From sequence record OZ035751.1: a stretch of DNA of 48,490 bases; one strand, written 5' to 3'. The DNA comes from Lambdavirus PDP110P1. Shown here piece after piece: positions 28,673-45,958 of the stretch. Made by a program: the position numbers and the translations under genes. Under the pieces are notes generated by a model that worked only from the letters and a program-made list of their open reading frames with translations, searched no databases and was not told the origin of the DNA. Numbering within the stretch: the first letter of the stretch is position 1; the number at the start of each line of letters is the position of its first letter.

Positions 28673-28757
28673 CGCAAAGTCTCCGCAATTACTCGCAAGG
28701 GAACGAGTAGTGGTTGATTTTTCTCCAACAAAAAAGGAGCCGAAGCTCCTTTGATGA

Positions 28758-33518: not shown

Positions 33519-34407
33519 CCTCCAGTTTTGCTTTGCATTCTGCGTAAATGGCTTGTACGTTCTGCTGCAATTTCATTCCAGATGTCAGGCGATATGCTTC
33601 TGCAAAATATCGCTTCAAATCATCCATGTTTTCTGCCTGAGCCATTTCATCACAAAGAAGTTGAGCTTTTTCCATAATTTCCTGCTGGCGTTTCCGTTCA
33701 TCTTCGCGGATATCTTCCTCTGATTTGTGCGGCATAACTGGTTCAGTCCATACACCTTCTTCTTCGTTTAGTACGTGAATAGCACTATCAAGACGTGATG
33801 CCTTAGGCCAATACTTGCTTGCACGCTTTACGACCGTCTTTCGCGCCATCTCATTCCAGTGATTTACCCATGGTCCTTTATCGCTGAATGCCGCCTTGCT
33901 TGTTTTCCTTACAGCCTCAATTTCAGCCAGACTCATCTCTTCCGTTAGATAATCACCTGCTGGCGTCTTAACTGTGCAGTAAACGCCAACGATATCACCA
34001 CGATCACCGAAGGCGTTGTATTTATGGGTTGGTGCTTTATCAAGCCCGTTTGACTCATAGGTATCGTTAGCATGAACAAGTTTTGCCTGACCCCATGAGA
34101 TAACACCAGACTCCATTGCAATATGGAGCAATCCCATATAACTGATATCAAGGCACACCATGCCGTCGCGCGGAACCAGATAAGCCAGTTTGCTAGCCGG
34201 GTTTAAGGTGATGCCGATCGCCGCAACATTGATGATGGCGTTCTGTGCGCTGGTTGGATTTGCCAGTGCTGTTTTAGCCAGGTAATCATTTTTCTGGAAA
34301 TACTGAATTGCAAACTGGCTTTCCTTAGCCCATGTCACCGTCTGTTCAGTCAATGCTCCGCAGAATAACTGCTCTTGCTGTTTAACGAATTCAACGATAT
34401 TGCTCAT
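33496..34407 (-). CDS. recT: RecT-family single-strand annealing recombinase
   Basis: 303 aa; segment GPWVNHWNEMARKTVVKRASKYWP matches the conserved RecT region. Confidence 0.8.
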   Translation of the reverse strand: MSNIVEFVKQQEQLFCGALTEQTVTWAKESQFAIQYFQKNDYLAKTALANPTSAQNAIINVAAIGITLNPASKLAYLVPRDGMVCLDISYMGLLHIAMESGVISWGQAKLVHANDTYESNGLDKAPTHKYNAFGDRGDIVGVYCTVKTPAGDYLTEEMSLAEIEAVRKTSKAAFSDKGPWVNHWNEMARKTVVKRASKYWPKASRLDSAIHVLNEEEGVWTEPVMPHKSEEDIREDERKRQQEIMEKAQLLCDEMAQAENMDDLKRYFAEAYRLTSGMKLQQNVQAIYAECKAKLEVASEQTI

Positions 34408-38081: not shown

Positions 38082-38726
38082 TTAACCAAACGTCTCTTCA
38101 GGCCACTGGCTGGCGATAACTTTCCCCACAACGGAACAACTCTCATTGCATGGGATCATTGGGTACTGTGGGTTTAGTGGTTGTAAAAACACCTGACCGC
38201 TATCCCTGATCAGTTTCTTGAAGGTAAACTCATCACCCCCAAGTCTGGCTATGCAGAAATCACCTGGCTCAACAGCCTGCTCAGGGTCAACCAGAATTAA
38301 CATCCCGTCAGGAAAACTAGGTTTGGATCCTGTTGGCGCGGTCATGGAATTACCTTCAACCTCAAGCCAGAAAGCTTTTTCGCTGGCTTTTGTGGTCGTT
38401 GGGACCCATGCCTTTGCATCGCTGGCTGTGTAGCTTCCCACCTCCGAAAATGGCCCGGCCTGCACTGAAGAAAATAACGGGTATTCATATTGGCGAAATA
38501 CGGCGTCTGAATCCTCGCCAAACATTATTTTTGCCGGAGATACGCCGAGTGCCGCCCCAAGAACCAGCGCGTCATCCGCGCTAACCTTTCTTGTTCCTAA
38601 CTCGTAGTTCCCCAGGCGTGAAGGCGCAGCCCAGCCGCAAAGCTTGGCCAATTGAGCCTGGCTAAGTCCTTTAGCTTCTCTAAGGGACTTGATCCTTTCC
38701 CCGATAATTTCATGCATCGTTTTCAT
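38082..38726 (-). CDS. cI: CI-type repressor (HTH plus LexA-like S24 peptidase domain)
   Basis: 214 aa; N-terminal HTH (…[24 protein letters not shown]…), C-terminal autocleavage domain; divergent from cro across operators. Confidence 0.85.
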
Positions 38727-39170: not shown

Positions 39171-39467
39171 ATGGCACAAGCAAGCTACAGCAAGCCAACA
39201 CAGCGAGAAATTGATCGCGCTGAAACTGATTTACTCATCAACCTGTCAACGCTTACCCAGCGCGGTCTGGCAAAGATGATTGGCTGTCATGAATCGAAGA
39301 TAAGCAGAACGGACTGGAGATTTATTGCTTCGGTCTTGTGTGCTTTCGGAATGGCATCAGACATCAGTCCGATTAGCAGGGCTTTTAAGTATGCGCTTGA
39401 TGGACTCACCAATAAAAAACGCCCGGCGGCAACCGAGCGTTCTGAACAAATCCAGATGGAATTCTGA
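39171..39467 (+). CDS. cII: CII transcriptional activator
   Basis: 98 aa; C-terminus …LTNKKRPAATERSEQIQMEF matches lambda CII, N-terminal two-thirds divergent. Confidence 0.8.
   Translation: MAQASYSKPTQREIDRAETDLLINLSTLTQRGLAKMIGCHESKISRTDWRFIASVLCAFGMASDISPISRAFKYALDGLTNKKRPAATERSEQIQMEF
39412..39440 (-). terminator. oop-type terminator antisense to the cII 3' end
   Basis: on - strand a GC-rich hairpin followed by TTTTTTATT, at the position of the lambda oop terminator. Confidence 0.45.
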
Positions 39468-43969: not shown

Positions 43970-44618
43970 TGGCAGCAAATACCGAAATATTTGGGTAGTT
44001 GGCGATCTGCACGGATGCTACACGAAACTGATGAAAAAACTGGAGACGATAGGATTCGACACCAAAAAAGACCTGCTTATCTCGGTTGGCGATTTGGTTG
44101 ATCGCGGTACAGAGAACGTCGAATGCCTGGAATTAATCACATTCCCCTTTTTCAGAGCTGTACGTGGAAACCATGAGCAAATGATGATTGATGGCTTATC
44201 AGAGCGTGGAAACGTCAATCACTGGCTGTTTAATGGCGGTGGCTGGTTCTTTAATCTCGATTACGACAAAGAAATTCTGGCTAAAGCTCTTGCCCATAAA
44301 GCAGATGAACTTCCGTTAATCATTGAACTGGTGAGTAAAGGTAAAAAATATGTCATCTGCCACGCCGATTATCCTTGTGACGAATACGAATTTGGAAAGC
44401 CAGTTGATTATCAGCAGGTAATCTGGAACCGCGAACGAATCAGCAACTCACAAGACGGGGTCGTGAAAGAAATCAAAGGCGCGGACACGTTCATCTTTGG
44501 TCATACGCCAGCAGTGAAACCACTCAAATTTGCCAACCAGATGTATATCGATACTGGGGCAGTGTTCTGCGGAAATCTCACATTGATTCAGGTACAGGGA
44601 GAAGGCGCATGGGAATAA
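43947..44618 (+). CDS. ninI: Ser/Thr protein phosphatase (NinI)
   Basis: 223 aa from MRYYEKIDG; calcineurin-like motifs GDLHG, GDLVDRG, GNHE. Confidence 0.85.
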
Positions 44619-45127
44619 GAGAATTAAACCTCACCAAAGAGCAGCACGAGTGGCTGAATGGCTGGCTTGAACTGTGGGGGGCATGGGTTTATTCAGGTCG
44701 TCTGGAAAAGCGCATGAGCAGCGTAATAGCTAAGTTCATGGAGAGCGTAGAGCCGGGAAGAGTTATGACAAGGCCAATGTGTAATGATGATGATGGAATG
44801 TTGATTTCTCAGGTCGTCGATTCCGTCATGTACATTGACAAGAAAGCCTTTGGCATCCTCCTCAGCTACTACGCTCATGGTTCATCTAAGCGAGCAATTG
44901 CATCCTACTATCACGCGACTGCAAAGCCACGCAAGATGTGTGGACGTGGTGGCGAGGGATGGAGAAAACCTTCACTGGCAACCTGTAGAAACGAAATTGA
45001 CGACATCCTGAAAGCGTCGTTATTTGTTTTGTACCAACCAATGCAAAATGCTTTCAAAATGCGTAAACGTGTTGAGAAAGTTAAGCATGTTGCTGTTAAA
45101 AGCCTTGACATGCAATTAGCCATTTAG
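44609..45127 (+). CDS. late antiterminator Q-like protein (non-lambda type)
   Basis: 172 aa, unlike lambda Q; sits between ninI and the lysis genes; Cys-rich; a strong promoter lies in its 3' end followed by an early terminator. Confidence 0.5.
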
Positions 45128-45134
45128 CCATAAT
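45105..45134 (+). promoter_or_regulatory. late promoter pR'-like
   Basis: TTGACA-N18-CATAAT overlapping the end of the Q-like gene. Confidence 0.6.
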
Positions 45135-45146
45135 TAGAAGGTAAGC

Positions 45147-45190
45147 TGCCGTTAGTGACTCTTAAGTTGCAACGGTGGCTTTTTTATTTG
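45147..45190 (+). terminator. early late-operon terminator (tR'-like)
   Basis: hairpin GCCGTT…AACGGTGGC followed by TTTTTTATTT about 10-50 nt downstream of the predicted start. Confidence 0.5.
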
Positions 45191-45262
45191 CACAACAGGT
45201 AAGAGCATTGAACCCGCAGACCTGCGGAATTGGTGAAAGGTGCCGCGCAGTTCTCTTATCGT

Positions 45263-45392
45263 TGTGGTGAAGCTCAATGGCGAGCTAGCAGATAGGCGAT
45301 AGTGAAAATACTAGTCATGTAGCTGACCGCCGCGCGTACTGCAATCGGCAGCGCACCGATGGAAGCCGGTTCGATTCCGGCCGCCACAACCC
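45263..45392 (+). other. tRNA-like element (split or degenerate)
   Basis: 5' acceptor TGTGGTG plus D-arm GCTC…GAGC (45263-45286) and T-arm GCCGG-TTCGATT-CCGGC plus 3' acceptor CGCCACA (45365-45388), separated by ~55 nt of non-canonical sequence. Confidence 0.3.
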
Positions 45393-45634
45393 AAACTGAG
45401 CCGTAGCCACTGGCTATCCTGAATTCATCAGTGATAGTTATGCTGCGGCCTTCTACACATGACCTTCGTGAAAGCGGGTAGCAAGATGCTGCGCTAACAA
45501 CCTCATGCCGTTTTGCCCGTGCATATCGGTCACGAACAAATCTGATTACTAAACACAGTAGCCTGGATTTGTTCTATCAGTAATCGACCTTATTCCTAAT
45601 TAAATAGAGCAAATCCCCTTATTGGGGCTAAGAC

Positions 45635-45958
45635 ATGAAGATGCCAGAAAAACATGACCTGTTAGCCGCCATTCTCGCGGCAAAGGAACAAGGCATCGGG
45701 GCAATCCTTGCGTTTGCAATGGCGTACCTTCGCGGCAGATATAATGGCGGTGCGTTTACAAAAACAGTAATCGACGCAACGATGTGCGCCATTATCGCCT
45801 GGTTCATTCGTGACCTTCTCGACTTCGCCGGACTAAGTAGCAATCTCGCTTATATAACGAGCGTGTTCATCGGCTACATCGGTACTGACTCGATTGGTTC
45901 GCTTATCAAACGCTTCGCTGCTAAAAAAGCCGGAATAGAAGATGGTGGAAATCAATAA
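45635..45958 (+). CDS. S: holin S
   Basis: 107 aa [22 protein letters not shown]… with Met1-Lys2-Met3 dual start; recognised as lambda S. Confidence 0.9.

Follow-up and report, generated by a model that had tools for sequence, protein, structure and literature searches.

A phage-21-family Q cassette as the probable late switch of the mosaic lambdoid phage PDP110P1, and a possible two-position specificity code among Q21-type antiterminators

Introduction

A structurally characterised relative of the late switch considered here is that of phage 21, whose antiterminator, Q21, acts on RNA polymerase (RNAP) shortly after initiation at the late promoter. After promoter escape, when RNAP has paused at a sigma-dependent pause element, the SDPE, two Q21 protomers bind direct repeats (bioRxiv 10.1101/651190; PMC6606751). 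The H1-H2 linker, H2 and H2-H3 linker of the upstream protomer form a torus in the RNA-exit channel (bioRxiv 10.1101/651190; PMC6606751); the nascent RNA threads this torus, and hairpins are prevented (Yin et al., 2019, bioRxiv 10.1101/651190; Shi et al., 2019, PMC6606751). Residues W26, V27, V39, K42 and S46 of Q21 are reported to touch RNAP (PMC6606751), and the last six residues contact the RNAP alpha/beta interface (bioRxiv 10.1101/651190). H95, R113, A124, R127 and R128 are the base-reading residues, named by Shi et al. (2019) without their partner bases (PMC6606751).

Yin and Ebright distinguish three Q families, namely Q21 (PF06530), Q-lambda (PF03589) and Q82 (PF06323) (PMC9388147). 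Lambda Q uses the same nozzle mechanism and needs NusA, while Q82 has the same role and gene position in lambdoid phages (PMC9388147). Within the Q21 family, gp23 of phage L shares 80% identity with Q21 (Zaworski et al., G3 2021, PMC8022706), with the differences falling from residue 94 to the C-terminus, the DNA-contacting part, and the likely phage L Q-binding element (QBE) is AATTATCC/ATTTAGCC in place of ATTGAGCA/AATGAGCA (PMC8022706).

Identity of the late regulator

The window analyzed here is the whole 48,490-base stretch of Lambdavirus PDP110P1 (OZ035751.1). Its late regulator is encoded as follows.

44609..45127, + strand: Q gene, Q21-family late antiterminator of 172 aa (open reading frame list, PF06530, PDB, PHROG 943)

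The reading frame begins with ATG and overlaps by 10 nt the end of the upstream phosphatase gene, ninI. A first-pass annotation of the DNA had described a late regulator unlike lambda Q lying between lambda-type nin and lysis genes, and both halves of that description hold. By BLASTP, lambda Q finds nothing in the window protein (E 4.8). In a profile search against Q-antiterminator families, as that annotation had suggested, the protein matched PF06530 (Phage_antitermQ; 90.3 bits, cut-off 26, E 1.1e-25); the Pfam search gave no match to PF06323, the Q82 family, nor to PF03589, the family on which lambda Q itself scores 193 bits. Among PHROGs it belongs with phrog_943, "anti-termination protein Q-like" (E 2.6e-93), and of all PDB chains only phage 21 Q is matched (6JNX, 6JNY, 6P18 to 6P1C; E 1.6e-92, residues 1-162). 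Judged by its sequence, then, the window protein is a Q antiterminator of the Q21 family, unrelated to lambda Q.

Lambda Q has no sequence similarity to the window protein and is its functional analogue, not its homologue; what the two share is the genomic slot and the logic of a constitutive promoter, a sigma-dependent pause, a near terminator and a QBE between the -35 and -10 hexamers. Q82, likewise, belongs to a different protein family from window Q. As for the flanks, homology to lambda at 95-97% stops at 44614, the end of ninI, and restarts at 45385, upstream of S, to run on through S, R and Rz. These two breaks in lambda homology show the whole cassette to be a clean module replacement.

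Relative to Q21, residues 1-102 of window Q are the same except for H95R, residues 103-162 agree at ~60% of positions, and the C-terminus is longer by 10 residues. The RNAP-contact residues W26, V27, V39, K42 and S46 fall in the block identical to Q21. Of the base-reading residues, R113, A124 and R127 are kept, and two are changed, H95R and R128N. Since these two residues co-vary with the repeat sequence across the family (see below), altered specificity is likelier than loss, and the substitutions look like a changed DNA specificity. The 10 extra residues follow a segment that in Q21 ends in the alpha/beta-contact residues, so that this RNAP contact may be altered in the 172-aa protein.

The same 172-aa allele, at 97-98% protein identity to window Q, is found as Sf6 gene 59 (gp59), as the Q of HK75, HK629 and CUS-3, and as gp23 of phage L and ST64T; by sequence, the phage L gp23 allele is the allele found in the window. 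P22 gp23 is not of this type; the phage L paper calls it lambda-Q-like (PMC8022706).

Late promoter, Q-binding repeats and terminator

The complete phage 21 record OL657228, in which the -35, both QBE subsites (QBEu and QBEd), the -10, the start, the SDPE and the terminator are annotated, served as reference. Element coordinates come from its alignment with the window, Sf6, HK75 and HK629, the phage 21 start and terminator positions being those of the GenBank annotation.

45105..45110, + strand: pR' -35 TTGACA, in the last Q codons (aligned with phage 21 pR' -35)
45114..45121, + strand: candidate QBEu, upstream Q-binding subsite AATTAGCC (aligned with phage 21 QBEu ATTGAGCA)
45122..45129, + strand: candidate QBEd, downstream Q-binding subsite ATTTAGCC (aligned with phage 21 QBEd AATGAGCA)
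45129..45134, + strand: pR' -10 CATAAT (consensus scan; phage 21 has AACACT there)
45141, + strand: probable transcription start G, seventh base past the -10 (placed by alignment with the annotated phage 21 start)
45142..45147, + strand: SDPE TAAGCT, -10-like, +2 to +7 (identical to the phage 21 SDPE)
45143..45188, + strand: intrinsic terminator tR', hairpin 45143-45181 and U-tract 45180-45185 (RNA fold; phage 21 homology)

In a sigma-70 scan, TTGACA and CATAAT, separated by an 18-nt spacer, together match 11 of 12 consensus positions, and pR' is the sole match of at least 11/12 in the window, both strands included; in 40 first-order Markov simulations such matches averaged 0.68 per window and numbered 3 at most. 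The final 23 nt of the Q reading frame take in the -35 hexamer and most of the spacer, and the stop codon of the frame, TAG at 45125-45127, falls between the two hexamers. Two direct 8-bp candidate Q-binding repeats (45114-45129) occupy the interval between the -35 and the -10 of this promoter downstream of Q; QBEd includes the Q stop codon, and its final base is the first base of the -10. The last 10 Q codons (45098-45127) thus contain the -35 hexamer and the Q-binding repeats, in bases that are both coding and regulatory. Phage 21 Q ends earlier, and it is the 10 extra residues of the window protein that run the frame through its own -35 and repeats. Across the family loci the end of the Q frame varies relative to its promoter: at one extreme it lies 33 nt beyond the point where the -35 begins, at the other 6 nt short of that point.

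What the window holds in common with phage 21 is the Pfam family, the -35, two 8-bp direct repeats in the spacer, a -10, and TAAGCT at +2 to +7. The two differ in the repeat cores, TTAGCC in the window as opposed to TGAGCA in phage 21, and in the -10, CATAAT as opposed to AACACT. The pR' spacer is 18 nt versus 17 in phage 21, and the QBE-SDPE spacing differs by one base, on the upstream side. The pause pattern TANNNT stands at +2 to +7 in 36/36 diverse family loci.

Folding of 45141-45192 yields a 17-pair hairpin with one bulge and a 4-nt loop (-20.2 kcal/mol, z-score -4.07; 0 of 200 shuffles fold as well), with U6 (45180-45185) just after the G+C-rich core of the stem; 29 of 30 bases are identical to the phage 21 terminator. 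A simple terminator scan did not report tR', as the outer stem encloses more than the 8 nt of its loop limit. The element is annotated as Tr' in HK75 and t R' in Sf6, both of which have the same tR' as the window; the pause element overlaps the 5' arm of its hairpin, and S, R and Rz follow downstream. Counted from G45141, the start given by homology, the terminated leader would measure ~45 nt.

The first-pass annotation had already called a near-consensus promoter across the 3' end of Q and a terminator within about 50 nt, and the 11/12 match, with its -35 in the frame and the stop between the hexamers, and the hairpin with U6, ~45 nt from the aligned start, agree with it. Its further proposal, a Q-utilisation site packed into the short leader, is not what the alignment gives: phage 21 homology puts the repeats ahead of the start and leaves the pause element alone in the leader. 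The lambda pR' leader is ~190 nt long, and the annotation was right that the compact layout departs from it. The layout is, however, not unusual; a leader of about 45-50 nt, in phage 21 as in the window, is the normal design of the Q21 family and is annotated in Sf6 and HK75.

A 30-nt identity profile of the window against phage 21 falls into three blocks: ~99% over 44609-44870, ~70% over 44870-45141, and 29/30 over 45159-45187. From this profile, the diverged block corresponds exactly to the DNA-binding half of Q together with the repeats, the -10 and the initially transcribed nucleotides, and conserved sequence lies on either side of it: the RNAP-binding half of Q before, the pause element and terminator after.

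Relatives carrying the 172-aa allele vary in a few of these elements. In HK75, HK629 and L the upstream repeat reads TTATCC, the promoter and repeats being otherwise as in the window. HK629 (locus L002, 1465-1610), loci L018 and L025, and others combine the same 172-aa Q, repeats and -10 with a wholly different initial transcribed region and terminator, and the pause element in loci of this type is TATGCT. HK629 also carries an HNH endonuclease gene, inserted before S, and the "putative pR'" of its record is placed elsewhere, probably wrongly.

On these grounds, the late switch of this mosaic lambdoid phage is very probably (~0.92) a phage-21-family Q cassette of the Sf6 gp59/HK75/HK629/L gp23 allele. 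The analysis establishes the family, the element positions by homology and their conservation; the mechanism is drawn from the published phage 21 work, and that this allele would read TTAGCC in place of TGAGCA is deduced from sequence only.

Covariation of base-reading residues and repeats

Among 166 close relatives, TTAGCC-type repeats accompany all 86 copies of the 172-aa allele, and TGAGCA-type repeats accompany all 78 readable copies of the 162-aa allele, a pairing that could be simple linkage. Given that possibility in close relatives, diverse loci were tabulated: 33 were fetched, one genome per species, for a table of 36. In these, N128 occurs with T at repeat position 2 in 14/14 cases and R128 with G in 21/21, the single K128 also being found with T. 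At position 6, C accompanies R95 in 18 of 19 loci, and A accompanies H, Y or L95 in all 17. All four repeat combinations (TGAGCA, TGAGCC, TTAGCC and TTAGCA) are present, and at residue 124, R goes with TGGACA and E with TTACCC.

These pairings suggest a simple two-position specificity code in the Q21 family, whereby residue 128 would read position 2 and residue 95 position 6, making the 172-aa allele orthogonal to Q21; we rate this at about even odds. At the level of bases, and with equal chances of being right or wrong, R128 would go with G and N128 with T (A on the other strand), while R95 would go with C (G on the other strand) and H, Y or L95 with A.

The alternative that deserves most attention is that the variant repeats are products of neutral drift, and that the 172-aa Q and Q21 share one specificity and cross-activate each other's promoters. 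Much of the locus is indeed compatible with this: the -35, SDPE and terminator are common to the window and phage 21, R113, A124 and R127 are retained among the five base-reading residues, the six-base core keeps T1, A3, G4 and C5, and one Q21-type locus pairs R95 with TGAGCA. That locus, L171 (Shimwellia pseudoproteus, 1201-1790), encodes an otherwise Q21-identical protein and is the single exception at position 6. Drift would not lead one to expect, however, that both repeats are altered at the same two positions, or that residues 128 and 95 should follow positions 2 and 6 so closely, with all four combinations in existence. Substitutions at base-reading residues, moreover, cut Q21 binding and read-through (PMC6606751). 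Two neighbour-joining trees were built, one without residues 90-135 and the other on residues 96-160 without the scored positions. The residue and repeat classes are interspersed on both, and several sister groups differ in both partners (L180/L182 versus L183, L175 versus L178, L195/L196 versus L193/L197), though the segments are short and recombination carries the protein segment along with its repeats, such that the trees are suggestive only. Taken together, we consider shared specificity unlikely, at perhaps one chance in four.

Proposed mechanism and the short leader RNA

By analogy to phage 21, the phage-21-family cassette would operate as follows. RNAP would start constitutively at pR' (-35 at 45105, -10 at 45129, start near 45141), and sigma-70 region 2 would then rebind the -10-like TAAGCT at +2 to +7, causing a pause. 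Without Q, the transcript would stop at the hairpin and U-tract after ~45 nt. Once Q has been produced from the early rightward transcript, two protomers would bind the direct repeats AATTAGCC and ATTTAGCC in the spacer, freed after promoter escape; on the Q-loaded RNAP, pause and terminator hairpins would no longer form, and this block would allow read-through of tR' into S, R, Rz and the remaining late genes. For the 172-aa allele, we infer the start site, the pause, Q binding to TTAGCC repeats and read-through from this comparison.

A further layer of control is suggested by a CII-site motif within Q, which matches the annotated phage 21 paQ site and is conserved though its flanks diverge.

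44921..44934, - strand: probable CII-binding site TTGC-N6-TTGC of antisense paQ inside Q (aligned with phage 21 CII site)
44902-44907, - strand: -10-like TAGGAT of candidate paQ (sequence)

A CII homologue is encoded at 39171-39467 (PF05269, E 4e-36). We infer that paQ and its CII site function in window Q as well; if so, CII-dependent antisense transcription from paQ would probably lower Q expression during the establishment of lysogeny. Further copies of the motif TTGC-N6-TTGC lie at 28685 (pI-like), at 39180, where the cII homologue starts (pRE-like), and at 34118, this last one unexplained.

One might instead suppose that the ~45-nt terminated transcript is the main product, a trans-acting small RNA in lysogens like StxS, with antitermination only part of the story. 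Precedent exists, in that pR' promoters are constitutive, short terminated RNAs are known from lambda, 21, 82, phi80 and P22, and StxS of Shiga-toxin phages arises in this way (PMC7547250). The terminator segment is also near-identical in phage 21 and the window while its surroundings diverge. Yet the 45 nt are nearly all hairpin, without an obvious single-stranded seed, and the HK629-type relatives keep Q and the repeats with a wholly different leader and terminator, which argues that the RNA sequence is exchangeable. We therefore consider a small-RNA role of this kind highly improbable.

Setting of the cassette in a mosaic genome

Downstream of the terminator, the read-through leader and the first late gene carry the following features.

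45261..45392, + strand: tRNA-like relic, in the read-through late leader (partial Rfam tmRNA/tRNA-clan match; aligned with phage 21 tRNA-Thr)
45635..45958, + strand: holin gene S, by homology the first late gene under Q control (open reading frame list; holin in HK75 and Sf6)

The relic occupies the slot of tRNA genes in phage 21, Sf6 and L, these being tRNA-Asn and tRNA-Thr in phage 21 and Sf6. Phage 21 thus carries two tRNA genes where the window has the relic instead, and Sf6 and L, unlike the window, retain theirs intact. Rfam gives 45261-45392 a 20-bit acceptor/T-arm match, below gathering; in the cloverleaf-like fold there are an acceptor stem of 7-9 bp, a D-arm and a T-loop with a perfect GGTTCGATTCC, and the anticodon arm is oversized, while the fold of the whole region is no better than that of shuffles (z -0.99). 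As a real tRNA the segment fails: ARAGORN finds none by default and, when introns are allowed, no more than a poor "tRNA-Lys with 77-nt intron" whose acceptor stem is mismatched, nor does it call a tmRNA there. HK75 and PDP110P2 share the relic at ≥97% identity. Within the 440-nt gap from tR' to S there is no + strand reading frame of at least 40 aa, and we regard the "polyubiquitin-A" annotated there by some records as spurious.

Elsewhere in the window, ARAGORN calls a tRNA-Ala (cgc) at 38446-38528 (- strand) wholly within a 214-aa cI-like repressor frame (38082-38726, - strand), probably a false positive. A 32-nt patch at 45180-45211, isolated amid non-lambda sequence, shares 94% identity with lambda 44776-44807, which covers the end of lambda tR' and what directly follows; it may mark a conserved boundary for recombination between late-control modules.

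The left arm of the window (virion genes, 1-24000) is 92-96% identical to Klebsiella pneumoniae prophage-like phages, for example ST15-VIM1phi2.1, while the right arm (int to Rz, 24001-48490) is ~96% lambda-like in patches and 99% identical to PDP110P2. The window cassette sits in a lambda-type nin/lysis setting in a phage with this Klebsiella-phage-like left arm, and the cassettes of Sf6, HK75, HK629, CUS-3 and L differ from it in their flanks only. A megablast of 44400-45700 against phage genomes returned 269 records, the module being 99.8% identical in PDP110P2 and ~97% identical in HK75, Sf6, HK629, CUS-3 and many P22-like phages of Salmonella. In IMG/VR the allele is carried by at least 598 contigs, the best 80 being 98-100% identical, and the Q protein is 100% identical in PDP110P2 and in IMG/VR contigs.

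The least probable reading, and a very unlikely one, is that of a dead cassette left behind as a prophage decays, its gene and signals intact in appearance but no longer working. In its favour are the mosaic make-up of the window and the reduction of the usual downstream tRNA genes to a relic. Against it, the Q frame is intact and many phage genomes carry 100% identical copies, an allele at 97-98% identity serves the plaque-forming HK75, HK629 and Sf6, and all cis elements are intact, as are S, R and Rz downstream.

Implications

The window late switch is already known, as a described module with a known allele and annotated signals. The HK75 record annotates a "pR'" across the end of Q and a "Tr'" right after it, and the Sf6 record annotates a late promoter, a qut site and t R', each "by homology with phage 21". 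The variant repeats (TTAGCC for TGAGCA) and the changed contact residues were published for phage L in 2021 (PMC8022706). The value of the present analysis for annotation is that the late promoter, pause site, terminator and probable antisense promoter are placed to the base by homology, in a Q module that was exchanged whole, its limits being the end of ninI on one side and the region upstream of S on the other.

A specificity differing from that of Q21 was earlier suggested for phage L, and a family-wide code is, as far as we have found, apparently undescribed. The correlation could potentially be useful for orthogonal, highly processive antitermination switches in synthetic biology. If the two-position code holds, the window allele (R95/N128, TTAGCC) would be orthogonal to Q21 (H95/R128, TGAGCA), and the Q21 family would comprise at least four mutually exclusive natural Q/QBE pairs built on one shared RNAP-binding torus.
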